64,000 nt of DNA from an uncultured virus (IMG/VR IMGVR_UViG_3300035698_005065). Lineage: Duplodnaviria; Heunggongvirae; Uroviricota; Caudoviricetes. Position 1 is the stretch's first letter; every line of letters starts with the position of its first letter. Positions 6,422-59,398 of this stretch are shown here, piece after piece. Position numbers and translations under genes: made by a program. The stretch is from IMG/VR virus record IMGVR_UViG_3300035698_005065; one strand, 5' to 3'. The notes beneath the pieces are model-generated. The model was not told where the DNA came from. It saw only the letters and a list, made by a program, of their open reading frames with translations, and ran no database searches.

Positions 6422-7066
6422 ATGAACAAAGAACAAATTAAGTCAGCGTCAGAAGACGTCATCTTCCAGGCATTCATCGACCACCGCCGCGCTGTACAAA
6501 AGCGGTTAGAGCAGGCCAAGAGCCGCGAAATTAAAGCCATTTTCGATTCTTGCTCGCATCCGCCCTCGTCGAAATTAGCTGATGAGAATGTCCAAAAGGT
6601 CGCCCCGGAAGAATACGGGGAGTGCGCGCCCTCCTCGGAAACGCCCCAGCATTACGGGAGCGGCGTAGGAGTTCCTTGGGACGCCCAGAAGAAAATGGAG
6701 TCGAGCGGCAACGCCTTCGTTGATGCCAGGCGATGCGACGGTATGAAATATGCCTTCCGCGTCAAGTCTGACCTAGAGGGCGACCTTCGAAAGGGCGCTC
6801 ACTGCTTGTTGGCTGCCGCGGACGAGCTGCGACGGCTTAACAACTCAGTGGTGGAGGACGAGCTGCAACGGCTTAACAACTCAGAGGCGGAGAACGACGT
6901 GGCGAAGTTCGACTTCTCATCATTTGAGGAGGAGGAGCTTGAATACTTGCGCGCGGGGTGCCCGCCCCCTCGTAATTTTATGAGCGCGTATGTGCGGGCT
7001 AGAAACGAGGAACTCCCCAAGTCGGAAAACGTCATGCGGGATAATTCGAGTAAGACTGAATCATGA
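6422..7066 (+). CDS. DUF3310-like domain protein
   Basis: PQHY...MKYAFR...DLRKGAHCL pattern; short internal duplication DELRRLNNSVVE/DELQRLNNSEAE. Confidence 0.45.
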   Translation: MNKEQIKSASEDVIFQAFIDHRRAVQKRLEQAKSREIKAIFDSCSHPPSSKLADENVQKVAPEEYGECAPSSETPQHYGSGVGVPWDAQKKMESSGNAFVDARRCDGMKYAFRVKSDLEGDLRKGAHCLLAAADELRRLNNSVVEDELQRLNNSEAENDVAKFDFSSFEEEELEYLRAGCPPPRNFMSAYVRARNEELPKSENVMRDNSSKTES

Positions 7067-9486
7067 GCGACAGACGAAGGGGGTTCGCGCAGGACGAAGT
7101 CGAACCCCCGTATGACGACGGTGCGCCCCCGAAGACACTGAAGGTAAGCCGCCACATCGATGACGTGTTTTACGTCGCCGGTCGGTCCCCCGTATTGGGG
7201 CAGGAGCAATACGACGTCATGTTCGTGACGGCCTCCGTGGAGGACGACGAAGCGACTAATCAAGCCGAGACCAAATTCGGGTTTCGCATTAACCAGCCGG
7301 CGGAATACTTGAAAGGGTCCACCGGGCTTATCCGGGACGTAGCCTTACGCGCCGGGATTGACATGGACACGTGCTACTTCACTGCCGTGTGCAAGTGGCT
7401 CCTCCCTAAGGCCAGGAGAGCAAAGCCAGCCACCAAGATACTGAAGTGGGGCCTCCCCGTCCTAGAGGACGAAATCCGACGCGTTAAGCCGAAGATTATC
7501 GTCTGCATGGGCAAGCCGGCTTACGACATGGTGTCGGATCAAAAGATCGGATTCAAAGACGGTCACGGTTGCTGGTTCTGGTCCGAAGACCATCAAGCGC
7601 ACGTCTATTTGATGCACGCGCCGTTCACGCTGGTCACTAAGCCAGACTTCTACGAGACGTTCCGGGTGGACTTTAAGGAGATTGCTCGGCGCGTAGACAT
7701 CCTGAGGACCGGAGTCATACCAAACGACCAGGTCAACTACGAGGTCCTGCGTAACGAGCAAGACCTCGAGGACTGGATCGCGCGCATCGAGGACCTTGCC
7801 AACGGTTGCCCCGAGTCCCAGGGTGCCGACGAGTGGCCCGGTATAAGGTCGGACGATGGCTGCCCTCTGCTCGCCGTTGACTGCGAGTGGCACGGCCGCA
7901 CGCACATCGACGGGCAGCTGCGAACAATACAGTTCGCCTGGTCTGAAAGGGACGCGGTCGTAATTGAGTTCCGTAACGAGAAGAACGAGTGGAGCTTCGA
8001 CCACCCGGACGCGCCGCCGGATCTACCGCCGGACCTGTCACCTCCCTTTCCTAAAAATGTCGAACCTTCAATCTCGAAAGCGATAATCGAGAATTGGGCC
8101 GACGGCGACCCTCCGGAGGGCGAGGAGGGGTGGGTGAGACGAGACGAGCATAGTTGGACTAGAGAAACGCCGGCACCTCAGCTTCTGGAGACGGGTGACT
8201 TTTTCAGTCGTATGATAGACAAGCACTCGGAAAACGCCGATGACTGTTCTCCCGCCGAGCACGTCCGGCGTGCCATGTCGCGCACGGACGCTCTAGTGCG
8301 CGCGGTTCGAGGGAGAAACGAGAGTCGCCACGAGGTAGAGGCCAAAGCTTACAAGGCTGTAGGGGCTCCTCTCGCGGACATGCTCTCTCGTATCAACGCC
8401 AAGTACATCGGGCACCACTACGCTGCCGACTCCCCGTGGATGCATCACAAGCTAGGCATCACGGTGTATCAGCGCTGCGAGATGGACACCGAGTTCGCCC
8501 AGCAGACGTGTGACGAATCGAGCGAGTTAGGGTTAGAGCGCGGCATCGGGATGAAATACACGACCCTCGGTCGGTATGATCAAGCGCTCGTGATGTGGAA
8601 GCGTAAGAACAAAGACCTCGTAAAAGGCGGCTACGGCTTCGTCCCTAGCGCGATCCTGCACCCTTACGGGGCTCGGGACGTCATCGCCCCCCTTCGGGCC
8701 TACCCGCTTATCAGGCGCCAACTAGAGGCGCAAACGCTATGGGACTACTACGTGAACCTGTTTAACCCGTTCGTGACTGACGTCTTCACAGACTTCACGA
8801 TGCTGGGTCTACCAGTGGACGTCCCCATGCTGGACGACCTGAGGGTTCTGTTTGCCTTCGCAAGAGATAAGCTTGAGGTCAAACTACAGAGGCGAATCCA
8901 CGAGGAGGCCGCCAACAAGCTACAGAACCGCATTGTTCGAGAGTTGGGCTTCAAGGCGCTGCAGAACATGAAGGGAGACATCACCAGAAAAGATGAGAAT
9001 GCCATCGCTCAGAAAGTAAAGGAGCTCCTGTTCGCAGGGGGAGACTCCAAAGGTATGTCCAGTTGGTTGTCTTTGCTGCGGCATTTCGTGGACTCTCAGA
9101 AGTTCAACATCCGAAGTCCGGACCAGATGCGCAGGTGGTTGTTTACCGTCGAAGGTCTCGAACCCATCAAGTCGACGAACCAGAAAGCGGCGGGCCTGCC
9201 AAGTATGGCGTGGGACAAGGTGCTGGAGCTTCCCCCAGAACGTCAGAAGGTCTACACCCCCGCGGTAGACAAGCAGACGCTGTCGATCCTATCGGAGCAG
9301 TTGTCGGCGCTGGATCAACTGCTGGACCTCAACGCCGTCGGTAACATCGCTAAGGCCTTCCTGAAGGAGGCGTCGAGCCACGAGGACCCGGAGACGGGAG
9401 ATACGACAACAGAGGAGCACGGACTGCACTCGTGGCTTGCCAGTGACGGCAGGATACACGGTCAGCTATCAACAACGGAAACGGGT
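7063..9486 (+). CDS. polA: family A DNA polymerase, exon 1 (UDG-like domain, 3'-5' exonuclease, thumb)
   Basis: UDG4-like CYFTAVCK..EIRRVKPKIIVCMGK; Exo motifs VDCEW, GHHYAAD, YGARD; FNIRSPDQ; ends DGRIHGQLSTTETG. Confidence 0.85.
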
Positions 9487-10175
9487 GAAAATTTTCGTAG
9501 ACAAACAAAAGCATCCGCTTAGGGTGCTGTAATGGAAGTATTAGAGAAAGATTGTGAGATGTGCGGCAACACATTCACAGAAGTAAGTGCCGCTGTCATG
9601 CGGCAGAAGCGCTATTGCGGGGTGTGCACGCCCGCAGAGCGGGGTAAGGTGAATAACCTAAACTTAGAGGACTGCTAGGCGCGTCCGAGCGCCTACCTCT
9701 ACGCTACGACTTCTACATCGCAGGTTGTCAAACCTTGGTAGAGGCAGACGGGGAGCAGCATTACCAAGAAGGACCTGACACATACTTCGACACTAAGAAC
9801 TTGAAAGAGCACGACCGAAGAAAGAATGAATACGCCAAGGAGAACGGCTTAAAACTTATCCGAATCCGTTATCGCGCCACCTTTGCCGAGGTCCGCGAAT
9901 TAGTTTGTCTAAAACTCGCCCCTTTAATCAGTAATGATTAAAGCAAACCTATTTAATTCAGGGGAACCCTTTTCGAAGGCAATCCTGAGCGAAGCCGCCG
10001 CATGGCGGAACGTGCAACGACTATCCCGAAAGGGAGTAGAACCAAGTGGTTCGAAATAGTAGGGACCCGGCACGCGTCGGGTCATGATATAGTCTGGTCT
10101 GCAGACATAATAAATAAACTGCAGCTGTCACCAAACGTGGCGGGCTTAGCTTAACGAGCTAGGCTGAACACAACG
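9487..10175 (+). ncRNA. group I self-splicing intron (IA-like) in DNA polymerase gene
   Basis: 5' exon ends in U9486, intron ends in G10175; splicing restores TETG|RTRSWMPNTLNWP; P1 GGGU|GA pairs with UCGCCC 9916-9921; P2 hairpin with GUAA loop 9922-9943; core GCAATCCTGAGC, GCAACGACTA, GATATAGTC (P7 10019-10023/10090-10094). Confidence 0.9.
9532..9941 (+). pseudogene. degenerate intron-encoded homing endonuclease (Zn finger + Vsr/DUF559-like nuclease)
   Basis: 9532-9678 encodes CEMC..YCGVC then stops; a different frame encodes LPLRYDFYI..LVEADGEQHY..DRRKNEYAKENGLKLIRIRY. Confidence 0.7.
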
Positions 10176-11858
10176 AGAACCCGGTCATGGATGCCTAACA
10201 CGCTGAACTGGCCCGCATATGTAAACAAGAGAATATCAAAGTCTATAGGAGCAGTTATAAAAGAAGCACACGAGGAGGGTGACCTCCCAGAAGACCTACT
10301 ACAATGGGTGGATAAAGATCCTGAGGATTTACCTTCTATACGGTCCGTTGTTACGGCACCGGATGGTATGGTCTTTGTGGAGAGCGACTACAGCGCTGCG
10401 GAGAGCTTCGCGCTCGCTATCATATCTGGTGACGCGGATTTGATGCGCATCCTGTATGAGCCTGACCCGGACTGGGCTTACCTGAACAGCGACAACCCTT
10501 ACGGCGCGTCGTCGGTACGCGTGGGGTTTTCTGAAAAGTCTCCCGTTCCCGTCGAGGCGCGGGACCCAGACTTCATCATGAACGTCTGGAAAGACGGGGA
10601 GAAGCTGGGACCTGTCACTGAAGACATGCTGGCTCGCGACTCACTTGGCAATCTGAAGAAAGCCAAGTATGACACCCACTGGTCTCTTGCCGAAGCGACT
10701 TTCGATAAAGGTCGCGAGATGATGAACGAGAAGGTGCAGAGGACCGGGGCCAAGGCTATTGGGTTTTGCGTCGCGGAGGACTCTGAAGTCCTGACCCGCG
10801 ACCGTGGCGTCGTAGCTTTGCAGTCGGTCTCTCTTGACGATCTGTTATGGGACGGCGTCGAGTGGGTAAGTCATGGGGGCGTCGTCAATACAGGAGTCAA
10901 AGAAATCATCAAGTATCAAGGACTTCGAGCAACAAGGCTGCACGAAGTCTGGACGGAAGAAATCGGTAAGTGCAGGCTAGAAGAGGCTTGCGCCAGATCG
11001 CTTACGCTTGTCAGGTCCGCTGGCCCGCTCAGCATCTTGCCCGATGTTTCCAGAAATTCCAAAAAGGCGCAGGTTGTCGGGCGCGGAGACCTTGACGCGG
11101 CGTGTCGCGCGTTCATCTGCGGGAAAGCGCAAACGTATGATATCCTAGATGCTGGACCGCGACACAGGTTTACGTGTTCCGGAGTTCTTGTTTCGAACAG
11201 CGCCGCTTACGGCGCGTCGGCCGGGTCTATCGAAAGAAAGATCGAGTCCGACACGGGCATCAAACCTGAACCAGGAACTGGCGATAAGGGGCTCGACATG
11301 ATTGAGGCCCGGCAGCCTAGGGCTACGGAGTTCATGCAAGAGATGGCAGCCATACCTAAGACGCACGGAATGTATCGTGCGAAGTCGGGACGCATACGCC
11401 ACTGCCTCACGCATAGCGCTGGGTCTGGTGTTAACTGGAGGGTGAGAAACTCACTAGAGTCGTCGATGGGTCGCGAGCTCCGTAACTACCCTTTGCAGGA
11501 GTCAGTTGGAGCTACCGCCGCTAGGGCCTGCCGCATGCTGGGGGAGGCTTACCGGCGTCTTGGTCTACAAGCGCGCGGCATGACGTGCCTGTATGACTCT
11601 GTGGTTACGATGTGCCCGCCGGAAGAGCGCTTTCTAGTAGCCAGGCTGCACCAGGTTTACATGTGCGATCACAACACGTGGGACTACGATGGGCGGCTAT
11701 TGAAGTTCTCCATCGACACGGACATCGTCTACAAATGGTCCACCCCACCAAAGGGCGCAGAGAAGAAAGAACTCGAGTCCCGGGATTACCGCCCGGCGTC
11801 GGCTAAGCACAACATGCTGGAGAACTGCGCGGACATCACGATGTTCGCCGGAAGGTAG
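10176..11858 (+). CDS. polA: family A DNA polymerase, exon 2 (polymerase domain, intein-containing)
   Basis: motif A ESDYSAAE, motif B RTGAKAIGF/SAAYG split by intein, RNYPLQ, motif C-like CLYDSVV. Confidence 0.85.
   Translation, partial: RTRSWMPNTLNWPAYVNKRISKSIGAVIKEAHEEGDLPEDLLQWVDKDPEDLPSIRSVVTAPDGMVFVESDYSAAESFALAIISGDADLMRILYEPDPDWAYLNSDNPYGASSVRVGFSEKSPVPVEARDPDFIMNVWKDGEKLGPVTEDMLARDSLGNLKKAKYDTHWSLAEATFDKGREMMNEKVQRTGAKAIGFCVAEDSEVLTRDRGVVALQSVSLDDLLWDGVEWVSHGGVVNTGVKEIIKYQGLRATRLHEVWTEEIGKCRLEEACARSLTLVRSAGPLSILPDVSRNSKKAQVVGRGDLDAACRAFICGKAQTYDILDAGPRHRFTCSGVLVSNSAAYGASAGSIERKIESDTGIKPEPGTGDKGLDMIEARQPRATEFMQEMAAIPKTHGMYRAKSGRIRHCLTHSAGSGVNWRVRNSLESSMGRELRNYPLQESVGATAARACRMLGEAYRRLGLQARGMTCLYDSVVTMCPPEERFLVARLHQVYMCDHNTWDYDGRLLKFSIDTDIVYKWSTPPKGAEKKELESRDYRPASAKHNMLENCADITMFAGR
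10767..11198 (+). mobile_element. mini-intein (144 aa, no endonuclease) in polymerase motif B
   Basis: starts CVAEDSEVLT, block B ATRLHEVWT, ends TYDILDAGPRHRFTCSGVLVSN followed by +1 Ser. Confidence 0.9.
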
Positions 11859-16705: not shown

Positions 16706-17184
16706 TGCCACCACGTAAGAAAATAACACCCAAGGTAGTGAAGGCCTCCGGAACCGGAGTAGCCCGCACTCTAGCCTCCATACTCGGCGTGTCCCCTCTA
16801 GAGACCGTTGAAGAAGTATGCGAGCGCTACTCAGAAATGGACGGAATTCCCCCGTATCAAAGTATGCTCGTGTCCGAAGTTGTCGGCCTGTATGCCTGGG
16901 AAGTGGATGTCGCCAACAGCATCATGAACTCTAAGCCGGGAATGGTTTCCGAGTTCGTTGACGAGATGCTGTGCTCGTCCGGGGAAGTGTGGGTCGTAAA
17001 AGACACGCAGCGAAGCGGCAAAGACGCCATATGGCTCGTTGCCGCTTCGAGCCAACGAGACACACCGTTCATCAGGTCGGTGTGGAATCTCCCCATACGC
17101 GGGATATTCCACACCGTAGTCACCGAAGACGGAAGAACTAGCGTCGTAACCGCAGTCCAATTATCATCATGCCACCAGCTGTAA
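16705..17184 (+). CDS. hypothetical protein
   Basis: ORF coupled between RecA-like and RecQ genes. Confidence 0.65.
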   Translation: MPPRKKITPKVVKASGTGVARTLASILGVSPLETVEEVCERYSEMDGIPPYQSMLVSEVVGLYAWEVDVANSIMNSKPGMVSEFVDEMLCSSGEVWVVKDTQRSGKDAIWLVAASSQRDTPFIRSVWNLPIRGIFHTVVTEDGRTSVVTAVQLSSCHQL

Positions 17185-18887
17185 AAAAAACATCGTCGAA
17201 AGACATCAAGATCGAATCTAGAAAAGAAGTCGCTACCATGGGTCAAGTGAAAGCATATGCAGAGGGTATGAAGAAGATGCCCTACGTCCTGAATCAACTC
17301 GGGTTCGAAAGCCTCCGACCAGGTCAGGACCGCGCGGTCAAATCCATCATGACGGGCCGAGATTCCGTGGTGATACTGCCGACTTCCTTAGGTAAGTCCG
17401 CATGCTTCGTGGTCCCCACGTTGTGCATGGGGTGGAAGACTATCATCATATACCCGCTTATCGCCCTGATGAGGGATCAGTCAACCTCGATGCAGCGCAA
17501 AGGACTGGCCGCTGCGACGATATCCAGCGCCGAGACTGACGGGCACAACGCTTCGGTCCTCCGGGATTGGGCGGCGGGCGACCTGCAGTTTATGCTCGTC
17601 TCCCCGGAGCGATTCGCCAACCCGGAGTGGGCTAACGTGGTGCGACAGTATCCTCCTGATTTCGTAGCCCTCGACGAGTGCCACACATTCGCGGACTGGG
17701 CCGACACCTTCCGTCCCGGCTATAAGTCCGCGGGCCTCATGATTCAGGACGTCGCTCCCAAAGTTGTCGCAGCTTTCTCAGCTACGCTCTCGTCCGACGC
17801 TGAGGCTGAATGCCGAGCCGGTCTTGGTATCGAGGGGGCGGAGTTAATCTACCACTACCCGAGACGGACTAACCTGCACCTGTCGTCCCTATTCACCGAA
17901 AATCAATCCGACCAGTATCAATGGTTGCTTGAGAACTGCCCGGGGGCGACGATTGTTTACGCGTCCACTACAAAGCGCGTGGAGCTCTACGCGTCCACCC
18001 TGCAGTCTTACACAGATCGGGACATCCTGTTCTACCACGGAAAGATGTCCACGAAAGATCGAACTTACCAGCAGGACAAGTTCATGGCGTCTCCGGACGC
18101 TATCATCGTAGCCACGTGCGCCTTCGGTATGGGCGTAGACAAGGGCGACATTAGGTCCGTAGTCCACTTCGACATACCAGGGACGCTAGTGGCTTACACG
18201 CAAGAGTTCGGGCGCGCAGGTCGGGACGGTGCGGATTCTTTCTGCACGATTATTCCGACCAAGGAGGGCGTTCGCACGCAGCGACACTTCATCCGATGCG
18301 GTAGTCCGTCCCAGGAAGACATACGGAAATTCTGGGCCGCAGCCAAGAGTATGCGCGAGGGATCCAGCGGTATTATTACGGCGAAGCGTGACGACATAGC
18401 CCGACAAGCTGGCGTCGATACATTCGCGGTGCAGTCGATAATGGCTTTCTGCCACGGCGAACGCATGTTCATTAATGACGAGAGTGCCGCACGCAAGTCA
18501 CGCGTCCGTTTCGCTGAGAACATTCCGTCCCTCACTCCTACGGACAAGAAAGCGCGAGACGCCATTTATGATATCGGATTGGAAGGGGATGACGGGTGGG
18601 TTCAGATAAACTTGGACGAGCTGGCCGAGCAACTCAGTCGGGCGCCCCAGACGGTAGCCGGCCATCTGCGTAAGATGAGCAGCGACGGTAAGATCGAGTG
18701 GGTTAGGCCGTCGACTTCAAAGCCCCTCAGGCTGGGCCTGTCACCCGATGACATCCCGGCGGAGGCATTCCGACGGCTCGACGACAAGGCTAGGTCCGCC
18801 GAGGCCGATCTGCAGCTGGTTTTGACTTACGCGAACCAGTCAGACGACATGAAGCACACGTTTCTGGAACAACACTTGAATCGATGA
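17169..18887 (+). CDS. recQ: RecQ-family DNA helicase
   Basis: LRPGQ, LPTSLGKS, SPERF, DECH, FRPGY, SAT, ATCAFGMGVDK, QEFGRAGRDG. Confidence 0.9.
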   Translation: MPPAVKKTSSKDIKIESRKEVATMGQVKAYAEGMKKMPYVLNQLGFESLRPGQDRAVKSIMTGRDSVVILPTSLGKSACFVVPTLCMGWKTIIIYPLIALMRDQSTSMQRKGLAAATISSAETDGHNASVLRDWAAGDLQFMLVSPERFANPEWANVVRQYPPDFVALDECHTFADWADTFRPGYKSAGLMIQDVAPKVVAAFSATLSSDAEAECRAGLGIEGAELIYHYPRRTNLHLSSLFTENQSDQYQWLLENCPGATIVYASTTKRVELYASTLQSYTDRDILFYHGKMSTKDRTYQQDKFMASPDAIIVATCAFGMGVDKGDIRSVVHFDIPGTLVAYTQEFGRAGRDGADSFCTIIPTKEGVRTQRHFIRCGSPSQEDIRKFWAAAKSMREGSSGIITAKRDDIARQAGVDTFAVQSIMAFCHGERMFINDESAARKSRVRFAENIPSLTPTDKKARDAIYDIGLEGDDGWVQINLDELAEQLSRAPQTVAGHLRKMSSDGKIEWVRPSTSKPLRLGLSPDDIPAEAFRRLDDKARSAEADLQLVLTYANQSDDMKHTFLEQHLNR

Positions 18888-19114
18888 ACACGCAAGAATC
18901 ACCACCAACTACCGCCACGCCCCAAAAGTTCCAACGATTAAGGGCGTATCATCATCGCCTTGTTCGCTCCGTCCGTTGGCTTTTAGTGAGGAGGCTGGCG
19001 ATTAAACCCCACCCAGTTTACGCAAAAGACCCAGCATACCGGCCAAGCGGTTGTGCGGCAAAGCAAATGAGATTTGAATGGCAAACGATGCCTCAAAACT
19101 GGCGCTGGTTCTAA
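18884..19114 (+). CDS. small hypothetical protein
   Basis: ATGA overlap with recQ; contains attC-like half site CTTGTTCG. Confidence 0.5.
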   Translation: MNTQESPPTTATPQKFQRLRAYHHRLVRSVRWLLVRRLAIKPHPVYAKDPAYRPSGCAAKQMRFEWQTMPQNWRWF

Positions 19115-19136
19115 GCGCGAACGCTTAAATCCTACC

Positions 19137-19532
19137 ATGAATACCGCGCAAAATAACTCCGAAATCGCCAATAACTCCGACGCGGTAGTCATTGGCAGCG
19201 ATGCCTTGTTCTCTGGTTTCTGGACAGTTTCGAACGCTGACGGCAGGGATTACGACGGCGAGCAACCAATAGAGATATATGATCACCCCGAGCGCGGTCT
19301 GTGCGTTTGGTTTGATGATTACGCACCCGGGGACTCGACGCTATTTTCGGGCAACGGTCACGTTCCGGTCTTGATGTCAGGTCTTTTATTTTCCCCAGAG
19401 AACGTCCAAGGTGTGGCACCGCTACCAGCGGGAGCCGACTCCGAAAACAGGGTTGAGGTTGTGGCTACGCAGGATCATGTAAACAGTGGGGCTGGTGGCG
19501 GTTGTCCACCACCGTCTTGTTCTCCTTCTTAA
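19137..19532 (+). CDS. hypothetical protein, C-terminus encoded by attC-like palindrome
   Basis: ORF runs through palindrome 19398-19524. Confidence 0.55.
   Translation: MNTAQNNSEIANNSDAVVIGSDALFSGFWTVSNADGRDYDGEQPIEIYDHPERGLCVWFDDYAPGDSTLFSGNGHVPVLMSGLLFSPENVQGVAPLPAGADSENRVEVVATQDHVNSGAGGGCPPPSCSPS
19398..19524 (-). repeat. attC-like imperfect palindrome A
   Basis: GAGAAC..GTTCTC ends; inner arms CCGCTACCAGC/GCTGGTGGCGG; on - strand reads GAACAAGACGG...CTTGGACGTTCTC. Confidence 0.65.
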
Positions 19533-19594
19533 TTTTCTTAGGCGTCACCTGCCTTTGAGTGGTGAGTTCGGAATGCAAGACCGCTAAAAACAAA

Positions 19595-19828
19595 ATGAAT
19601 ATTAAAACTAGAATATCTGTTCGGATCGAGACAGTGGATGTCGAGACAGGCGAGGTCATGTCAGCCGAAAATCACCCGCATGAGTTTCCGTGCCCATCAC
19701 TCGACGGTCGAGTTGGTGATAAAATAGACATAACAACTCTTGGTCGTGTGGTCGCCGCCACCGCCGCCGCCCTTGCAGCCGAGCTTCAACATGGCGGCCT
19801 CGACAGCTCTGGCGTCAGTGTCTGTTGA
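19595..19828 (+). CDS. small hypothetical protein overlapping the - strand cassette gene
   Basis: phage-typical leader AAAAACAAAATG; 3' half is antisense to 19697-19993. Confidence 0.4.
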   Translation: MNIKTRISVRIETVDVETGEVMSAENHPHEFPCPSLDGRVGDKIDITTLGRVVAATAAALAAELQHGGLDSSGVSVC

Positions 19829-19993
19829 GCATGTATCGAACGCCCACTGACCATTCGTTTCATTAACATTATGATCGCTGAACAATCTGTCCCGTGGATC
19901 GGCTGCAATTCCTGCATACCAGGAACTCGCTGGTTCGGTGAACTTGTTCATGTATGCCACGAGGGCGTCGTAGACTTCTTGGGTGGTTTTCAT
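19697..19993 (-). CDS. conserved-looking bacterial hypothetical protein (GIY-YIG-like), putative integron cassette gene
   Basis: WYAGIAADPRDRLFSDHNV..ARAVE..GGGGGGD..YVY; only convincing - strand gene; starts about 16 nt after attC-like site B. Confidence 0.65.
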   Translation of the reverse strand: MKTTQEVYDALVAYMNKFTEPASSWYAGIAADPRDRLFSDHNVNETNGQWAFDTCSTDTDARAVEAAMLKLGCKGGGGGGDHTTKSCYVYFITNSTVE

Positions 19994-20008
19994 TGTGTTA
20001 TTTCTATG

Positions 20009-20107
20009 GAGAACGTCCAAGGTCTGGCGCAGATACCAGCGGGAGCCGACTCCGATTCCTAACCAAACTTCACCGCTGGCATCTGTTGCCAGCGCCGACT
20101 TGTTCGC
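20009..20107 (-). repeat. attC-like imperfect palindrome B
   Basis: shares GAGAACGTCCAAGGT..TACCAGCGGGAGCCGACTCCGA with site A; arms CTGGCGCAGATACCAGCGG/CCGCTGGCATCTGTTGCCAG; ends CTTGTTCGC. Confidence 0.65.
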
Positions 20108-20133
20108 ATTCTTCCGAATTACCTAAACCCTTT

Positions 20134-20616
20134 ATGATACCAATAACCAAATCCGCCACCGCAGACACACGGACCTGCGACTACGCCAACACCACCAAGG
20201 AAACGCTTTTAGCTTCCAGTCGCACCCATATCGGCGACGTAGTAAAAGCCATGGCGTTCTTCATCGGCAAACTCACCGAGGCCGCTGGGGAGCACGACTA
20301 CGACAAGCTAACGGCAATCGACTGGTTCCATGATGACTTCATCACAGGATTCGAGAAAACTGGATGGTGGGACAATCATAGAAAGATTCACCGACACCAT
20401 CTCGGACAAGAGGACGGAGTGCCAGAGGATGTGAATCTTCTCGACGTGATCGAATACATATCGGACTGCGTGATGGCAGGGATGGCGCGGAGCGGTAGCG
20501 TCTATGATTTGGAGATGACGCCAGAGATGTTGGAGCGCGCATTCAGGAACACGGTCGAGCTACTCAAGGCGGAGGTCGTTGTTTCTGATGCGAACTCCCC
20601 TGACCTTCGGCCCTAA
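20134..20616 (+). CDS. DUF5662-like HD-related protein
   Basis: HIGDV..HDYDK..HRKIHRHH..LLDVIEYISDC. Confidence 0.55.
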   Translation: MIPITKSATADTRTCDYANTTKETLLASSRTHIGDVVKAMAFFIGKLTEAAGEHDYDKLTAIDWFHDDFITGFEKTGWWDNHRKIHRHHLGQEDGVPEDVNLLDVIEYISDCVMAGMARSGSVYDLEMTPEMLERAFRNTVELLKAEVVVSDANSPDLRP

Positions 20617-20644
20617 GAGGGTCCGTAGCGTCGGACAGTTACAA

Positions 20645-20686
20645 CCGCCCGGACCATTGAATTGGACGGGCATTGCTGGCGAAATG
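20645..20686 (+). repeat. hairpin leader repeat, copy 1 of 3
   Basis: CCGCCCGGACCATTGAATTGGACGGGCATTGCTGGCGAAATG. Confidence 0.7.
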
Positions 20687-20893
20687 ACAACATATTACTA
20701 CGTCTTGCGCGAAGGGGGGACATCGCCACAAGTCCGCCACCAAACGATTATTAGTGCTCGGATCGAGGCTGAACGATTAGCTTCAGCTCATGAAGGAGAG
20801 GTTTTTTCAATCCTGATGTGTGTCGGGTTTTCCCAGGTATCTAAAGCGAGAACCTTTTGGGTAGATGGAATTGACCCTAACGTCATGACTTAA
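20684..20893 (+). CDS. small hypothetical phage protein
   Basis: ATG ends the leader repeat; PQVRH..ARIEAERLA..FSIL. Confidence 0.6.
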   Translation: MTTYYYVLREGGTSPQVRHQTIISARIEAERLASAHEGEVFSILMCVGFSQVSKARTFWVDGIDPNVMT

Positions 20894-20913
20894 TTTAAGG
20901 AAACACCACCAAC

Positions 20914-20955
20914 CCGCCCGGACCATTGACTTGGCCGGGCATTGCTGGTGAAATG
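20914..20955 (+). repeat. hairpin leader repeat, copy 2 of 3
   Basis: CCGCCCGGACCATTGACTTGGCCGGGCATTGCTGGTGAAATG. Confidence 0.7.
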
Positions 20956-21270
20956 AAACCGACTATAGGAAAAAAATATCTAATAACCACAGACGAATGG
21001 TTTATCGCCCCCGACGGGGAAAGCTACCGAGCCGTATTTGGAACCATAAAAGCGGTCATGTCTGATGAGCAAACCCTCGGAATAAAAACTAACCGCGGGT
21101 CAACAAATTGGTATGTTCAAATCGGATCCATGTTCATAGCGGGGTGCCAGATCCATTACGCCGTAGAGACGCTCAAAGTCAGCCCAACCCCACCGATGCG
21201 GGAGCTGGACCATGAGGGAAGAATTCACCCCAATCAATGCTTGGCATCTGCTATATTCCACGCTGATTAA
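20953..21270 (+). CDS. hypothetical phage protein
   Basis: KYLITTDEWFIAPDG..NWYVQIG..IAGCQIHYA; start follows repeat. Confidence 0.7.
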   Translation: MKPTIGKKYLITTDEWFIAPDGESYRAVFGTIKAVMSDEQTLGIKTNRGSTNWYVQIGSMFIAGCQIHYAVETLKVSPTPPMRELDHEGRIHPNQCLASAIFHAD

Positions 21271-21324
21271 TAAGCGCGAGCCTGAAGAATTACAAATTGA
21301 CTTTATCGAAAAAATTAACAAATC

Positions 21325-21858
21325 ATGAACATGAAAACCACGACTACATCAAGCGATCTCTTCATTGACGAGGATGACTTATCTGAGGCACTCCAAGACG
21401 CTTGGACTGACCACTGCACAGACACGGGGCACATTCCCGGCTTTCTCTCGTTTACCATGGGAGAGAATGGAGAAGAGATTCAAGCTGACTTTTTAGGGTC
21501 ACATTTCTCGACTATGGTAGCCGCGCTCCTCAATTCTAGGAATGAAGAGAAAAGCGTTGCAATCGAAGCAGATAGGAAGCCGCTTGAATGGCGTAAAGGA
21601 CCAGCGCACGAAGACTTCGATTCTGAAAGCTACTTCTGGGGCGACGGCGAAAGGATCTTAGTAATCGTAAAATACAGCGACGGAGAGAAAACAATCCTCG
21701 TCGATACGTCATGCGATGAACACTACTCGGTCCTGAATCTACTTGATGGCACGTTTGACGATTCCGGCGTGTGCCCCGAAGAAGTAATCTGGTGGGCTGC
21801 TGTGAATCCCGACAACTGGCCATCTTTGATGAACAACCAAGATCAAACATCGCCATGA
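21325..21858 (+). CDS. hypothetical acidic protein
   Basis: 177-aa ORF with A-rich leader. Confidence 0.65.
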   Translation: MNMKTTTTSSDLFIDEDDLSEALQDAWTDHCTDTGHIPGFLSFTMGENGEEIQADFLGSHFSTMVAALLNSRNEEKSVAIEADRKPLEWRKGPAHEDFDSESYFWGDGERILVIVKYSDGEKTILVDTSCDEHYSVLNLLDGTFDDSGVCPEEVIWWAAVNPDNWPSLMNNQDQTSP

Positions 21859-21951
21859 GTGACTTCGATCCACATAAAGACTGCCCCACACCCTCCGCGT
21901 GTGGATCACATAGCGTTTGCCTTGGCGATTGTTTTGCATCGTCTTGTTCTC
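21829..21951 (-). repeat. attC-like imperfect palindrome C
   Basis: GAACAACCAAGATCAAACATCGCCA..TGGCGATTGTTTTGCATCGTCTTGTTC. Confidence 0.55.
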
Positions 21952-22139
21952 TCCTGCCGTGTCCGTTTTGCGGTGGGGAGGCAAAAATTGAACGCTTGGG
22001 AAACCGTCGCACCAGTTGCATCGTTGGATGCACGAAATGCCACTGCACCTTAGAAACCAATGAACAAGGAGCGGGGCACTTCTGGAATCTTAGAGAGAAC
22101 TCCTCCATCCTGCCACCGAAAGATAAAAATAAACCATGA
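21855..22139 (+). CDS. Lar-like (restriction alleviation) zinc-ribbon protein
   Basis: LLPCPFCGGEA..CTKC..WN motif. Confidence 0.6.
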   Translation: MSDFDPHKDCPTPSACGSHSVCLGDCFASSCSLLPCPFCGGEAKIERLGNRRTSCIVGCTKCHCTLETNEQGAGHFWNLRENSSILPPKDKNKP

Positions 22140-22483
22140 GTAAAACAAAATTGGATTCATCTCCTTGTGACGCACTTACTCCGAATATCATTTCGGACAT
22201 GATTCAAAAAATCGCCGACATCCCCCAACGTAAAGGAATTTACTTCTTAAGTTCTTCAGCGATGAATGTCGTGAGATATGAATCAATAACAACAACCGAA
22301 ACATCACCAGTTATTTCAACTCTGCTCGGGCTCCCATTAATGGTGATGCCAGATCAGAAGTCAGATTGCATAATCGTCGGGGACGCTAAGATTTCCGAGG
22401 CGTATCGAGACGGAGTGATTTCCGAGAATCTATTGCTCTCAATTATGGAGCAGATTGTCCCCGACTCTGACGGGGGACTGTAG
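22136..22483 (+). CDS. hypothetical protein
   Basis: ATGA-coupled ORF, lower GC. Confidence 0.55.
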   Translation: MSKTKLDSSPCDALTPNIISDMIQKIADIPQRKGIYFLSSSAMNVVRYESITTTETSPVISTLLGLPLMVMPDQKSDCIIVGDAKISEAYRDGVISENLLLSIMEQIVPDSDGGL

Positions 22484-22500
22484 CCAATACCAACCCAAGC

Positions 22501-22542
22501 CCGCTCGGACCATTGAATTGGCCGGGCTTTCTGGGTTAAGTG
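22501..22542 (+). repeat. hairpin leader repeat, copy 3 of 3 (diverged)
   Basis: CCGCTCGGACCATTGAATTGGCCGGGCTTTCTGGGTTAAGTG. Confidence 0.6.
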
Positions 22543-22793
22543 ACCGGAGAAAAACGACCTAAAAAAGCATTCCGTATCGCCCAAATCTTGCTCTCTTTCT
22601 TCATTTCTTGGGCGGTGTTGGTTCTGTTGGCTCTGTGCCTACTGTCGTCGCCGGTGGGGGAATATGTGGCGGGGGTGGTGTTGGCTTGGTCTCTTGGATT
22701 CTCTCAGGGGGCGGCGCCGGTGACCTTTTTAAGAAAATGCTCGCATGACGCATCGGTGTTGCCAACCCCTCGGGGTCGCGGTATACATTGGGT

Positions 22794-24278
22794 GTGATAC
22801 CGGAAGACGAACCATCAGCGCCCCCGGGGGTGACTCTACGTGACCCAGAGGACTCGACCGCCACGCGGAGGGCCTTAGAGTCTGGCATAATGAAATCCAT
22901 GGACCGTTACGCAAACGGGTTTTCCTACGGCGGAGTGCGTCTAGAATTGGTCGACCTCAAGTATACCGACAAGGAGGAGTATTCCCTGAAAGATCAGGCA
23001 GAGGCCAAGGCGTCTGACAGCCTGTTGCATCGCCGACTCCGCGGGACCGTCAGGTTGGTGGACGAGGAGACCAACAAGGTCCTCGACACGAAGAAGAACA
23101 TGACCTTGGCCCGCGTGCCCTACTTAACGGAGCGTAACACCTTCATCAACAACGGGAGCGAGTTTAGTCCGGTGTCGCAGTCTAGACTTCTCCCGGGGAC
23201 CTACGCCAGGAGGCGCGCCAACGGGGAACTCGAGAATCACTTCAATACGAGACCGGGGACGGGCTCCGCGATGCGAGTGTCCTTCGAACCCACCACCGCG
23301 CAATACAGATTAAAGATAGGATCCTCAGACCTGCACGCCTACTCCATCTTTCGAGACTTGGGAGTGACCGACGAGGAGCTCTCTCGAAGGTGGGGACCGG
23401 AGATACTTGCGTCCAACAAGTCGAAATATTCAAAGCACGCACTCGCGCGGGCCTACCGCAAGTCTGTTCCCAAGTGGGAGCGTGACGAAGGACTTCCTTT
23501 TGACGAAAAGGTAGCAGCCATTCGAGCGGCTATGGACAGGGCGCAGGTGTCCGACGCGATCATGCGAAGGAACCTACCCAACCTGTATAGCCAGGAGAAG
23601 GCCGCCAGTTGGCGGAGGGCCGGAGCCGTCATACAAATAGCGCAGGACATGATTAAGAGATCGTCCGCGACATTCGCCCCGGACATGTCTCCCGACGAGG
23701 TATCCGACGACTGGGTGGGGTTTTTTGATGGTGTCGAAAAAGCTGCGGGATTCGAGCCCGATATTGAGCCGAACGGGATGCGCGAGGTGTACAACTCAAT
23801 CTACGGCAACCACGGACCTCAGCTCGCCTCGATGCGCGAGTGGCCCAAGCACTGGCTAGACGACGAAAACCAGAAGGGTTGGCTGCAATGGTATGAGAAA
23901 TACCACGACGGGCAGCGCGGGGAGACGGACGAACATCAGAAGAAGAGGTGGAAGTCCTTTAAGGCGCGGCATGGTGCCCAATTCGTAGCGAAGCCAACGC
24001 CCCGACGGGCTTTCGCGCTACGTAATTGGGGCATTGACCCTCTGAAGATGCTACCGGGAGACAAAGCCCTGCAGGTGGAAGAAGAGATGGAGAAGTATCG
24101 CCGAGGGGAGTTCGTGAAGTGGTTCATGAACCGTCACGACTTCGACGACGACGCCGCCATCAATCTATCCCTAAAAGCGGGCAAGAGAGGCGCCGAGATG
24201 CAGGAGGGCGTCCCTACACCCCGGGCACTCATGGCGATGGCGCTAGACGGATACATACAGCCCGAAGATTTAAAATGA
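22794..24278 (+). CDS. RNA polymerase beta-like N-terminal fragment fused to a Trp-rich C-terminal domain
   Basis: LRGTVRLVD..ARVPYLTERNTFINNGSEFSPVSQSRLLPGTY resembles RpoB IPxMTxxGtFIINGxERVIVSQLxRSPGVY; start at GTG 22794 inferred from promoter geometry. Confidence 0.8.
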   Translation: MIPEDEPSAPPGVTLRDPEDSTATRRALESGIMKSMDRYANGFSYGGVRLELVDLKYTDKEEYSLKDQAEAKASDSLLHRRLRGTVRLVDEETNKVLDTKKNMTLARVPYLTERNTFINNGSEFSPVSQSRLLPGTYARRRANGELENHFNTRPGTGSAMRVSFEPTTAQYRLKIGSSDLHAYSIFRDLGVTDEELSRRWGPEILASNKSKYSKHALARAYRKSVPKWERDEGLPFDEKVAAIRAAMDRAQVSDAIMRRNLPNLYSQEKAASWRRAGAVIQIAQDMIKRSSATFAPDMSPDEVSDDWVGFFDGVEKAAGFEPDIEPNGMREVYNSIYGNHGPQLASMREWPKHWLDDENQKGWLQWYEKYHDGQRGETDEHQKKRWKSFKARHGAQFVAKPTPRRAFALRNWGIDPLKMLPGDKALQVEEEMEKYRRGEFVKWFMNRHDFDDDAAINLSLKAGKRGAEMQEGVPTPRALMAMALDGYIQPEDLK

Positions 24279-25360
24279 CCACCAAATCAAAACAGAGACA
24301 TCAGTATATCGCCGACGACGACGAGTTTGAAACATACTCGTCTATCGGCGTGGACGGTCTACTTGCCGCGTCGGAGAAGCTACTAGCGGTCAACCGGGGA
24401 CTGGCGGAGACTGATGACCGAGACTCGCTACCCAACGATCGCATCTACATGGTGGATCAACTGATGTCCGAGAGGGTTAAGTTGGATCACGGAAAGGTCC
24501 TACGAAAGATGATGGGGCGCGTGGCTCGCGCGAAGAACCTGAATCCGATGGGTCCGGACACCTTCGGAGAATACACGACCGGCTACATCACAAGTAACCC
24601 CCTGGTCCCAGCGCTGGAGGAGATTAACCCGATGCACATCTTGGAGCAGCAACGTCGAATTACTAAAATGGGCCCCGGAGGCATCGGGGATCCCAACGCT
24701 ATTACGGGTGACATGCAGGCTGTTAGCGCTTCGCAGTTTGGGTTCATCGATACCATTGCCGGACCGGAGTGTCTGACAGGGGAGAGTGAGGTATTCACTG
24801 AGCGTGGGTGGGTTCCCTGGTGCGACGTTGAGGACTCGGAAGTATTCGCGTGCGGGAGCAGCGATAAGATCGAGTGGCACCGCGCGGAGCGTGTCGTGCG
24901 AGAGCACTACACCGGAGAGCTTCTGGTGGTCGAGAACAGCGAGGTCCGCATGGCCGTGACGCCTAATCACAGGGTCATAGGAAATTTATATCGAAACGAC
25001 GGAGAGGAGCTGGTCCTAGCGGCAAGCAAACTATACGGACTGCCCGTGTGGCTGCCTCGCCTATCGGGCGTGTCGCACGTCGGAGTGTCGGGCGACGACT
25101 GGCACACTGAGCATCACGACGGTCTAGTTTACTGCGCTTCAGTCCCGGGGGGTCGTTTGGTTGTCAGGGACAGCTGCGAGTCGGCATGCTACTGGACTGG
25201 CAACTCTGAGAAGGCCGGTATCGATGTTCGACTGGCTTACGGGACTCGTATCGGGTCCGATGGTAAAATTTATCAGTTGCTTCTCGACCGTCGCACGGGT
25301 AAGAAATCTTGGGTAAGCCCTACCGACCTACAGGGCAAAACACTAAAATTACCAGATTAG
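24275..25360 (+). CDS. RNA polymerase beta-like middle fragment (fork/Rif region), intein-containing
   Basis: DDRDSLPNDR, EEINPMHILEQQRRITKMGPGG, FGFIDTIAGPE/SEKAG match RpoB [37 protein letters not shown]. Confidence 0.85.
   Translation: MTTKSKQRHQYIADDDEFETYSSIGVDGLLAASEKLLAVNRGLAETDDRDSLPNDRIYMVDQLMSERVKLDHGKVLRKMMGRVARAKNLNPMGPDTFGEYTTGYITSNPLVPALEEINPMHILEQQRRITKMGPGGIGDPNAITGDMQAVSASQFGFIDTIAGPECLTGESEVFTERGWVPWCDVEDSEVFACGSSDKIEWHRAERVVREHYTGELLVVENSEVRMAVTPNHRVIGNLYRNDGEELVLAASKLYGLPVWLPRLSGVSHVGVSGDDWHTEHHDGLVYCASVPGGRLVVRDSCESACYWTGNSEKAGIDVRLAYGTRIGSDGKIYQLLLDRRTGKKSWVSPTDLQGKTLKLPD
24770..25204 (+). mobile_element. mini-intein (145 aa) in RNAP beta fragment
   Basis: starts CLTGESEVFTERGW, block B VTPNHRV, VYCASVPGG, ends WTGN followed by +1 Ser. 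Confidence 0.9.
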
Positions 25361-57620: not shown

Positions 57621-58078
57621 AATTAAAACAATCTGGGCCTCTTGCGCCCACCAATGAACCGTGGAATCTCATCCGCGATGCCATTTTCGATCTTGGACTT
57701 CAAGAGCAGCAGGAGGGCGTGGAGATCGAGATGGAAAGTCGGGGAACGATGAACGAGTGGCACGATCAACGCGACGGCGCGTGTCACCAGTGCCTCGCCG
57801 GGTCTGTCATGTCCCGGCGCCTTGGCGTTAATACTGACGCCTCCGCTTTCCCGTTCAACTTCCCCGACGACGTGAGAGACAGGCTCTGCGCGCTGGACGA
57901 TTTCCGCAACGGGGAGATTGGCTTCGCCTACCGCGAGCTGAAACTAGAACTCCCCTCCTCGATTCCTGAGCGCGTGTTTATCCCGGACTACCACCACGGC
58001 CACGCCGCCTTCAAGGCATCCATGCTAAAACTCGCCGACCAATTAGAGGCGGCACAACCAACCAAAACCAAGCTATGA
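57617..58078 (+). CDS. array paralog 1 (W-H/CxxC protein)
   Basis: QSGPLAPTNEPW..WH..CHQCLAGSVMSRRLG..FKASMLKLAD. Confidence 0.85.
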   Translation: MKLKQSGPLAPTNEPWNLIRDAIFDLGLQEQQEGVEIEMESRGTMNEWHDQRDGACHQCLAGSVMSRRLGVNTDASAFPFNFPDDVRDRLCALDDFRNGEIGFAYRELKLELPSSIPERVFIPDYHHGHAAFKASMLKLADQLEAAQPTKTKL

Positions 58079-58515
58079 TACTAGAACAATCCGGGGAACT
58101 CGCGCCCGCCAATGAACCGTGGACCCTCATCCGCGATGCGATCCACGACCTCGAACTTCAAGAGAAGCAGGAGGGCGTCGATGTCGATATGAGCGGCTGG
58201 CACGTTCCAATTATCAACGGCGCGTGTCACCAGTGCCTCGCCAGGTCTGTCATGTCCCGGCACCTTGGTATTGATACGGATAATCGCGCAGACCCGTTCG
58301 ACTACCCCGACGACGTAGCGGGCAGGCTCCGCGCGCTGAACTGGCTCAGCATCGGGGAGGTTAACGTTGCCTACCGCAGGCTGAAACTAGAGTTCCCCGA
58401 TACGCTTCCTGAGCGCGTGCACATCCCGGGCTACCGCCACAGCCCGCCCGCCTTCAAGTCCGCTATGCTCGACCTCGCCGACCGATTAGAGTCGGCACAA
58501 CCAGTCAACCAATGA
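58075..58515 (+). CDS. array paralog 2
   Basis: same motifs, ATGA overlap. Confidence 0.85.
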   Translation: MILEQSGELAPANEPWTLIRDAIHDLELQEKQEGVDVDMSGWHVPIINGACHQCLARSVMSRHLGIDTDNRADPFDYPDDVAGRLRALNWLSIGEVNVAYRRLKLEFPDTLPERVHIPGYRHSPPAFKSAMLDLADRLESAQPVNQ

Positions 58516-58955
58516 AATTGAAACAATCCGGGCCTCTTGCGCCCGTCAATGAACCGTGGACCTTGATCCGCGACGCCATCCACGACCTGACGCTTCAAGA
58601 AAAGCTGAAGGGCGTTAAGATTCGCATGTCTAATTGGCACTTACCAAGCGCCGGCGTGTGTCACCAATGTCTCGCCGGGTCTGTCATGTCGCGGCGCCTC
58701 GGCGTTGATACTAATGCTGACACGCGCCCACACGAATTACCAGACGTAGCGGCCAGGCTCCGCGCGCTGGAGGAGTTACGGTGCGGGGAGATTAGAGCCG
58801 CCTACCACAAGCTGAAACTAGAGCGCCCCGCTTCGCTTCCTGTGCGCGTGCCTATCCCGAACTACCACCGCCGCGGTCCCTCCGCCTTCAAGGCAGCCAT
58901 GCTAAAACTCGCCGACCGACTCGAGTTAGCGCAACCAGAACCAACCAAACCATGA
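58512..58955 (+). CDS. array paralog 3
   Basis: same motifs, ATGA overlap. Confidence 0.85.
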   Translation: MKLKQSGPLAPVNEPWTLIRDAIHDLTLQEKLKGVKIRMSNWHLPSAGVCHQCLAGSVMSRRLGVDTNADTRPHELPDVAARLRALEELRCGEIRAAYHKLKLERPASLPVRVPIPNYHRRGPSAFKAAMLKLADRLELAQPEPTKP

Positions 58956-59398
58956 TACTAGAACAATCCGGGCCACTAGCGCCCGCCAACGAACCGTGGA
59001 CCTTGATCCGCGACGCCATAAAAGACCTGGAACTGCAGGAGAAGCAGAAGGGCGTTAAGATCGAGATGGGCCGTTGGCACACCCCGTATCATTACGGCAA
59101 CGGCGTGTGTCACCAATGTCTCGCTGGGGCTGTCATGTCGCGGCGCCTCGGCGCTGATACTGACGCCTACATAGTTCCGACCAGCTTCCCCGCCGACGTT
59201 TTGGCCAGACTCGACGCGCTGGACGATTTACGCGGCGGGCATATTGGCGACGCCTACAGTTGGCTGGGACTAGAGCGTCCCTCCTCGATTCCTGAGCGCG
59301 TGTTTATCCCGCACTACCACTTCGGCCCAGCCGCCTTCAAGGCAGCCATGCTAAAACTCGCCGACCGATTAGAGGCGGCACAACCAACCAAACCATGA
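58952..59398 (+). CDS. array paralog 4
   Basis: same motifs, ATGA overlap. Confidence 0.85.
   Translation: MILEQSGPLAPANEPWTLIRDAIKDLELQEKQKGVKIEMGRWHTPYHYGNGVCHQCLAGAVMSRRLGADTDAYIVPTSFPADVLARLDALDDLRGGHIGDAYSWLGLERPSSIPERVFIPHYHFGPAAFKAAMLKLADRLEAAQPTKP

Follow-up and report, generated by a model that had tools for sequence, protein, structure and literature searches.

The 64-kb window analysed here, a stretch of the genome of an uncultured salt-lake jumbo phage, contains an accessory region in which genuine attC sites stand in reversed polarity to most of the genes between them. The region is probably an integrase-less attC cluster (CALIN) of a Verrucomicrobiales phage, whose units are moved and duplicated by an integron integrase (IntI) acting in trans. 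Integrons have been treated as bacterial devices, and lately as stores of anti-phage defences; the arrangement suggests that this phage uses bacterial attC sites backwards and that phages run their own version of the bacterial gene-capture system.

A geometric scan of the whole 64 kb (AAC, 5 nt, an 8-nt L'' with one extra base, then a 7-nt L', 6 nt and GTT, plus an inner stem) reveals five complete sites, all on the minus strand within 19116-21952, and no sixth outside these bounds. The sites, D (19116-19214, 99 bp), A (19397-19525, 129 bp, Akkermansiaceae-type), B (20008-20108, 101 bp), F (20589-20644, 56 bp) and C (21828-21952, 125 bp), share the canonical R''-5-L''(extra base)...L'-6-R' anatomy. 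The extra base occupies L'' position 4 in all five, as G on the top strand and C on its complement. Across 40 bacterial sites this G hardly varies, and passages of Bouvier 2009 (PMC2727003) describe the identity of the extrahelical base on the R''-L'' arm as not essential. With five sites in 2.8 kb on one strand and no integron integrase nearby, the array is a CALIN, described in passages of Cury 2016 (PMC4889954) as several attC sites less than 4 kb apart on one strand with no integron integrase nearby. It is not a complete integron (intI with an adjacent attI), as no intI lies at either array end. The initial annotation had reported palindromes A, B and C, whose positions hold with the limits given above, and the ~40 nt that it saw shared by A and B extends to 47 nt at 91%. 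It had also listed four half-site remnants: those near 18960 (site E) and 22097 (site G) are truly incomplete, but those near 19206 and 20592 are the R'' end of complete site D and the R' end of complete site F.

A home-built covariance model (CM), trained on 40 bacterial sites after exclusion of 10 of the 50 listed, matches four of the five complete sites, A (80.7 bits), B (57.5), D (42.1) and C (40.8), with scores that are partly circular because a pattern taken from the window's own sites served to seed the training set; F is missed because the model was trained without short sites. Across 82 CM hits from 18 phage sources, 94.5% of cells pair, against 32-44% in slid controls, in an alignment fitted to the model, and two-sided changes occur at all 16 pairs. 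Applied to 300 approximate dinucleotide shuffles of the 3.5-kb region, the geometric scan found a single site in 2 and never more, and an Rfam search returned nothing in the region. The constrained recombinogenic bottom-strand fold, the pfold criterion of folding into a recombinogenic hairpin outlined in parts of Loot 2017 (PMC5371416), has a probability of 0.09 (D), 0.12 (B), 0.13 (C), 0.39 (A) and 0.68 (F). Folding without that constraint gives only modest z-scores (0.02 to -2.5), which would suit chance palindromes, terminators or REP-like repeats, but box geometry, covariation and the crossover-bounded exchange described below refute such origins, leaving them a vanishingly small probability. 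The attC-like character first proposed thus becomes genuine attC identity: the extrahelical base is present, and CM support and counterparts in bona fide bacterial integrons, whose joint absence had been named as grounds for dropping the proposal, were both found.

The array is bordered on the left by a RecQ-like helicase gene (17169-18887, plus strand; Pfam DEAD and Helicase_C), whose stop codon shares bases with two further elements, the start codon (ATG) of the first cassette ORF and a crossover-like AAC triplet. Site E (18884-18968, minus strand; CM 17.3 bits, E 0.017), absent from the geometric scan, is an incomplete or chimeric attC with an intact R''/L'' arm (18945-18968) and an opposite arm that fails to pair. 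It encodes the N-terminus of a 76-aa ORF (18884-19114, plus; cassette E>D) that stops just before the D crossover, and a homologue search with this ORF found none. The 131-aa ORF of D>A (19137-19532, plus) starts inside D and reads through the whole of A; two homologues of its ~60-aa core occur elsewhere, and the ends of one of them are attC-like but different. Cassette A>B (19401-20011, 611 bp) holds a conserved bacterial-type 98-aa gene (19697-19993, minus), whose 3' end is overlapped by a predicted 77-aa ORF (19595-19828, plus) lying behind a leader that sequence comparison shows to be conserved (19525-19597, plus). The DUF5662-like (HD-like) phage gene of B>F (20134-20616, plus) takes its final 8 codons from site F. 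Three small ORFs (69, 105 and 177 aa) span F to C (20684-21858, plus), the last reading in frame into C; a cultured phage collection gave only four short matches, to the 105-aa ORF, and none to the sites. In C>G, a Lar-like restriction-alleviation ORF (21855-22139, plus) has its start codon and first 32 aa within C, with a bare Lar domain between the sites. Site G (22094-22120, minus) is a truncated attC with only the R'/L' arm (CM 7.8 bits, not significant), and an unrelated 115-aa ORF marks the end of the array.

Each R'' was compared with the 5' end of its own unit, as expected for a circularised cassette. The complement extends over 7-9 bp in D>A, A>B, B>F and C>G and is weaker elsewhere (6 bp followed by a mismatch in E>D, 3 bp in F>C). 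R'' agrees more closely with the opposite end of its unit than with the R' of the same site, with 19 of 24 flanking bases matching, a score equalled in 2 of 720 permutations. F>C, lacking the R''/R' complement, is not a matched cassette; because of this, and of the broken sites E and G, rearrangement other than by IntI also shapes the region.

Genes are inverted relative to attC in E>D, D>A, B>F and C>G, in line with the earlier view that inverted ORFs are read along the phage operon; only the 98-aa gene is canonical. Three matched cassettes carry phage-type inverted genes, each of which opens within a site or directly behind it and runs in frame into the following site, where it ends. Orientation, assigned by longest-ORF coverage, is inverted for 23 of the 27 viral cassettes in related contigs (three of the 27 being duplicates between L094 and L106), while bacterial genomes have 28 of 36 in the canonical direction. 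All 14 PHROG matches among 114 ORFs of six viral loci fall on the strand antisense to attC. At 45 of 52 phage sites, against 12 of 46 bacterial ones, the longest frame on the bottom strand keeps the crossover AAC in phase. The polarity has exceptions: TJE1, a published array, is canonical. In the window, the strand that is sense for the phage is also the recombinogenic bottom strand of every attC, and each small gene begins within or shortly behind one hairpin and ends at, or in frame through, the next AAC crossover; this placement would leave the operon unbroken, and presumably expressed, after cassette excision or insertion.

The sites belong to the attC family of Verrucomicrobiales (Akkermansiaceae), whose genomes encode IntI. 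Among 24 attC-shaped hits in 80 GTDB loci, 17 are labelled Verrucomicrobiota; IntI exceeds the TIGR02249 cut-off in all five such genomes tested and adjoins the array in one. The window sites are matched in 73 of 401 genomes of an Akkermansiaceae-level family. The host group of this uncultured jumbo phage can be predicted from its attC family, a use foreseen when comparison with bacterial integrons was first proposed. Sedentary integrons of Verrucomicrobiales, such as the L112 array beside intI L203, share with the phage array the attC family, geometry, L'' extra G and circular R''/R' match. Unlike them, the phage array has no intI, attI or Pc, and its genes are mostly antisense to attC and overlap the sites, whereas most of the bacterial genes are canonical and stop short of R'' or at it.

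Because the attC family is common to phage and host group, the phage could simply sample the host's ordinary pool and keep rare inverted cassettes read from phage promoters. The A-cassette gene, the only host-type gene here, belongs to a bacterial family and forms a canonical cassette in L320 and L321, and one inverted phage-like cassette lies inside bacterial array L112, both as such sampling would predict. The inverted genes, however, are of viral families (DUF5662-like, Lar), and the matches listed in the 401 host-family genomes are to attC sites and the leader, not to inverted gene bodies; the leader recurs after attC in two of the family's genomes, always ahead of an inverted ORF. Together with the nesting of attC-headed DUF5662 genes among attC-free phage homologues, this makes host-pool sampling quite improbable. 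The initial proposal of gene gain through a host integron stands as regards real attC sites and inverted genes, but the inverted cassettes are unlike the host's mostly canonical pool and look like phage genes packaged as cassettes and moving between phages.

The DUF5662-like cassette reveals this exchange. Phage L004 shares site B and the gene at 85.7% over a 587-bp stretch bounded by AAC on both sides, and the sequences of four phages (the window, L002, L004 and L005) part immediately past the AAC located at the gene's 3' end. Homologue clusters are 87-100% viral, and attC-headed genes form the small nested group mentioned above in a quick tree of weak support (85 for the attC-rich group, whose member L006 has no site). 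The tree agrees with derivation from attC-free genes, short of proof. The family bears on how cassettes originate, as an ordinary phage gene is traceable here from attC-free to attC-bounded forms. The coincidence of exchange and duplication boundaries with AAC is an indirect sign of IntI cutting at the bottom-strand G/TT. There is an even chance that Verrucomicrobia phages keep a mirror-image cassette pool of their own genes, with attC flanking an ordinary gene or bare domain (DUF5662, Lar) and units traded and amplified by an IntI of host or phage. Phage genomes would then be the birthplace of new cassettes, with this jumbo phage caught amplifying one. In such a pool, attC hairpins would supply a start codon and a tail in fixed frame.

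The 611-bp cassette A>B is duplicated in tandem in other assemblies. The overlapping record G001 holds two copies, and L318 has the order gene-A-gene-B, with B intact and the junction within the 15 nt holding the crossover. Depth of the unit is ~2x that of its surroundings in all four runs (X10, 13.6 vs 5-7; X3, 173 vs 72; X16, 8 vs 4-6; X19, 7.9 vs ~5), and contigs for both junctions are present in X10. Read mapping gave no formal joints; the evidence for duplication comes from depth together with contig pieces. Part of the doubled depth could stem from other replicons or from circles that have been excised. G001, X3 and X19 have a third, hybrid site in which an A-type arm sits on the B body, a sign of homologous recombination within the 21 nt identical between A and B, or of assembly, and not of IntI. 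This hybrid, broken sites E and G and unmatched F>C are what a relic would leave, in which cassettes captured in the past have become inert, and variation arises from homologous recombination or slippage of the A/B arms, or from assembly. Such a relic is unlikely, given the exact crossover-bounded duplication with intact B in L318 and X10, the high folding probability kept by all five sites and the 7-9 bp R''/R' match in four of six units. Movement by a trans-acting IntI, cutting the AAC/GTT crossover, would account for both transfer between phages and duplication, and would probably continue today; the duplication offers a natural population for testing this activity.

The duplicated 98-aa protein, whose gene is also present on a 160-kb contig, has a weak GIY-YIG-like lead. 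Its Pfam GIY-YIG match has an E of 0.16, 9 of 35 family members match weakly, and its atlas neighbours contain 14-30% GIY-YIG members. Tyr, Gly, Arg, His and Glu are invariant in the family, and on these conserved residues the protein may be a circularly permuted GIY-YIG candidate. A profile search gave no clear match, nor did comparison of the predicted fold (pLDDT 95.5) with the PDB by Foldseek and VIA-align (best Z 4.0).

Pfam searches of 72 of the 342 ORFs of at least 50 aa found no tyrosine recombinase in the window, in keeping with the integrase-free window noted earlier, nor did six-frame searches of the overlapping records G001 (77.8 kb, ~42% complete; PF00589 and TIGR02249) and G007 (38.5 kb). 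As none is present in the sequenced part of the phage, the integrase likely acts in trans, supplied by the host or by a co-infecting IntI-bearing phage. A host origin seems plausible; related phages encode their own IntI-like genes. Three of 18 viral records with such arrays have one (247, 255 and 330 bits; cut-off 265), in each case abutting the array on the downstream side of the inverted genes and pointing the same way as they do. These phage-encoded integrons, G009, G013 and G418 (L020), share the attC family and inverted in-frame genes with the window phage, and G418 also has a DUF5662-like cassette, but they carry the IntI-like gene right after the last crossover, where the window phage has none. 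These cases, and the incompleteness of G001, allow for an IntI-like or Xer-like recombinase of the phage's own elsewhere in its genome, a phage integron with a distant array. This is improbable, since elsewhere the integrase abuts the array and here the 115-aa ORF stands in that place. All four array-bearing viral records at least 90% complete also lack an IntI-like gene; integrase-less arrays therefore exist in complete phages.

CALINs in virulent phages have been published (Qi 2023, PMC9892861) and, as described in parts of that paper, resemble this one in same-strand attC, absence of integrase, small accessory genes and bacterial-type sites; those parts hold no discussion of inverted genes, in-frame sites, phage-phage exchange or duplication. 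Of three Qi 2023 arrays inspected, TJE1 is canonical and MW202573 and P12002L are inverted, P12002L contrary to the strand in Table S3, so the polarity is present in those data. A literature search, covering neither preprint supplements nor the Qi 2023 Dryad annotation, found no description of inverted in-frame polarity. IntI can also insert cassettes at short GWT sites (attG) in any genome and excise them imprecisely, according to portions of a preprint (Loot, bioRxiv 10.1101/2022.09.11.507474), a possible route by which attC sites reach a phage genome and come to border one of its genes; those portions concern E. coli chromosomes and canonical cassettes, here replaced by a phage and inverted cassettes. 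If the preferred reading is true, a reversed in-frame integron would be a site-specific route to phage mosaicism and counter-defence, with relevant cargo in the Lar-like anti-restriction gene here and methyltransferases in relatives.

The closest Lar relative stands at 65%, and a site of this attC family occurs at 1 of 80 Lar loci, so the Lar cassette has no comparative support. The only RecQ relative among viral contigs is the same phage, so no empty-site comparison is possible; the exact A/B arm pattern has two matches among viral contigs, both already known. A promoter scan was at chance level (4 vs 3.4). A hairpin leader repeat (20645-20687, plus) recurs at 20914-20956 and 22501-22543, with only these three copies in G001 and no exact match in other viral contigs, and each copy sits directly ahead of a small phage ORF.

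The window array is a real CALIN (an attC cluster without an integrase) of Verrucomicrobial-type sites; lacking intI and attI, it is not a complete integron, and it works like an integron array with its polarity reversed. The cluster occupies a run of small ORFs between a RecQ gene (ending at 18887) and an RNA polymerase-like gene (starting at 22788). Scanning both strands for attC geometry revealed five sites in all 64 kb, named D, A, B, F and C in window order, all on the minus strand within 19116-21952 and each with an unpaired G at L'' position 4; the same scan of the shuffled region returned no site in 298 of 300 trials and one site in two. Sites A (19398-19524), B (20009-20107) and C (21829-21951) lie where the initial annotation placed three palindromes, with A and B sharing 47 nt at 91% identity, as it had noted. 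Two of its supposed half-site remnants are whole sites, D (19116-19214) and the short F (20589-20644), while E (near 18960) and G (22097) are indeed incomplete. L-box sequences vary between sites, yet six or seven of seven positions pair, and the bottom (plus) strand folds into the recombinogenic form with a probability of 0.09-0.68 across the five sites, measured as in Loot 2017 (PMC5371416). Because polarity is set by extrahelical bases on the R''-L'' arm, with the identity of the first base not essential (Bouvier 2009, PMC2727003), assignment of the attC top strand to the minus strand is secure. In metagenome run X16, site D carries 11 substitutions and two indels confined to the loop (window 19150-19173), the remaining cassette being identical.

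A two-ended pattern search of GTDB yielded 92 stretches; among the 80 fetched, 24 are attC-shaped, 17 of these labelled Verrucomicrobiota. Similar sites thus occur in bona fide integrons: IntI scores above the TIGR02249 cut-off in five of five such genomes with attC-shaped stretches, and one bacterial array starts adjoining its own intI. A covariance model built from 40 of the 50 listed bacterial sites, leaving out short and most non-Verrucomicrobial ones, supports A (80.7 bits), B (57.5), D (42.1), C (40.8) and E (17.3), scores that are partly circular since the pattern that seeded the training set came from the window itself; on the window it missed F and gave nothing else below E 0.5. Its 82 matches in 18 phage sources, in an alignment fitted to the model, retain pairing in 94.5% of cells, and 16 of 16 pairs show two-sided changes. 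Furthermore, the region is matched by 73 of 401 genomes in the family of an Akkermansiaceae-labelled locus, at 70-87% identity and almost always at site A. From these family-wide and Verrucomicrobiota matches, we infer that the phage probably infects a Verrucomicrobiales bacterium.

Cassette ORFs mostly run antisense to attC and are read in the direction of the phage operon, as initially proposed: four units are inverted, the exception being A>B (between sites A and B), whose 98-aa gene is the array's only canonical one. The inverted ORFs begin within or just past a hairpin and end no earlier than the next crossover, and the four window ORFs that cross one all read its AAC in frame as Asn; in a Lar-like ORF, site C encodes the start and 32 residues, and the bare domain lies between sites. 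Inverted polarity is general in phages carrying this attC family. Across eight viral loci, 23 of 27 adjacent-site units (three being duplicates) are inverted, and 14 of 14 PHROG matches among 114 ORFs of six viral loci, from a comparison to which 150 of 175 ORFs were submitted, are antisense to attC. In bacterial genomes, 28 of 36 units are canonical, and five of the eight exceptions are among phage genes. The longest bottom-strand frame runs in phase with the crossover at 45 of 52 phage sites (including two prophage-like MAG loci) versus 12 of 46 bacterial sites. One inverted phage-like cassette (L112:1692-1979) sits within an otherwise canonical bacterial integron array, which suggests flow from the phage pool into a host array.

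No integrase was found in the window, as initially reported, nor in the overlapping virus records G001 (42% complete) and G007. IntI-like genes occur in three of 18 viral records with such arrays, G009 (247 bits), G013 (255 bits) and G418 (330 bits), in each case after the array and in the direction of the inverted genes, ~30-50 nt beyond an AAC in G009 and G418. G009, where about nine inverted attC sites directly precede the integrase (L311:1200-6880; same layout in the other two), also has terminase, portal-like and major head genes; G418 gave no terminase match. Should intI be transcribed along with the phage operon, standard intI/attI geometry would leave the top strand of the cassettes antisense and restrict expression to inverted genes; the inverted polarity would then stem from this intI layout. 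Among the viral records searched, none of four near-complete ones has an IntI-like gene; thus many phages, the window phage included, likely rely on an integrase supplied in trans.

A true cassette has an R'' that matches the opposite end of the same unit. This match spans 9 bp in D>A, 7 bp in A>B, 8 bp in both B>F and C>G, 6 bp in E>D and only the 3-bp core in F>C, with 4-6 bp for each site matched with itself; the observed flanking match (19/24) was reached by 2 of 720 permutations. Of 29 phage units, 90% carry the circular R''/R' match through to an eighth base, versus 53% of 30 bacterial units. Site B and its gene recur in another phage (L004) over 587 bp at 85.7%, with AAC at both start and end, and the 3' end of the B>F gene is alike in the window and three other loci (L002, L004, L005) up to AAC, diverging straight after. 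Judged from sequence, such AAC-bounded sharing and divergence is the footprint expected of IntI crossover.

The A>B unit (19401-20011, 611 bp) is duplicated in the population. G001, the nearest record, reads A-gene-A-gene followed by a hybrid site, and locus L318 reads gene-A-gene-B with B intact and a junction within 15 nt containing the crossover. The unit stands at roughly twice flanking depth in four of four runs examined (from a list of 24; two are marked as possible sources), and run X10 holds both junction contigs at depths of 7.8 and 5.7, the window's single copy probably being a collapsed or minority form. Hybrid sites in G001 and runs X3 and X19 argue for an additional contribution from homologous recombination or assembly. 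The 98-aa gene (19697-19993) belongs to a bacterial family with 39 matches, is an ordinary cassette in loci L320 and L321, and gave a weak GIY-YIG lead and no fold match; its invariant Tyr-x-Gly, Arg, His and Glu and C-terminal Tyr-x-Tyr strand may denote a circularly permuted GIY-YIG nuclease. The unit is amplified though this gene runs antisense to the operon; its conserved leader and its second ORF, on the plus strand, may be the part under selection. This 70-90-nt leader after the attC R'' end (window 19525-19597) is 86-87% identical in two bacterial arrays (L333:1501-1593; L334:1501-1587), each copy lying ahead of an inverted ORF converging on another ORF, and may act as a promoter or as an RNA element in two-faced cassettes.

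The gene in B>F is viral and resembles DUF5662. Among 80 viral loci carrying a relative, six contain window-family sites, four of these loci having a site directly upstream, and all 21 site matches are antisense. The attC-headed copies cluster (0/500 shuffles as low), with weak support, within a wider set of attC-free phage genes, a pattern consistent with the conversion of an ordinary phage gene into a cassette. By analogy with off-site insertion at attG and imprecise cassette excision (Loot preprint, bioRxiv 10.1101/2022.09.11.507474), these two steps could have produced it. Phage attC clusters and their recombination by IntI1 are already published (Qi 2023, PMC9892861); the window adds a cassette whose sharing with another phage is crossover-exact, a phage gene family that can be traced, and a duplication observed at population level. 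The available portion of that paper leaves gene polarity relative to attC untreated beyond divergent sites in one phage; on our inspection, its phage TJE1 is canonical, whereas MW202573 and P12002L are inverted. Phage cassettes that are both inverted and in frame were not found described in the accessible parts of the literature searched, which included PMC4889954, PMC5371416, PMC8352920 and PMC2727003 and covered few subscription papers.

The window comes from a jumbo phage whose genes, nearly all on the plus strand, include multi-subunit RNA polymerase subunits, family A polymerase pieces, RecA, RecQ and NAD ligase; a tRNA and a group I intron are also present. G001 (77.8 kb; completeness by CheckV) has 92% of its words in common with the window, and the phage sequence occurs in salt-lake metagenomes. 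The intron (9896-10114) separates two family A DNA polymerase ORFs (7063-9522 and 10191-11858). The RNA polymerase is split over several ORFs (22788, 24119, 37570, 59863), one of which (24119-25360) contains an inserted segment, presumably intein-like by residue pattern, with a PHROG match to an intein-bearing family region. Runs of near-equal-length ORFs (143-148 aa; 58075-59826 and 61435-62324) gave no Pfam match and are possibly tandem paralogues. A GC-rich hairpin with a short leader, possibly a regulatory element, has no further copies in G001 and none in other viral contigs; its three window copies (20645-20687, 20914-20956 and 22501-22543) each lie directly ahead of a small ORF.
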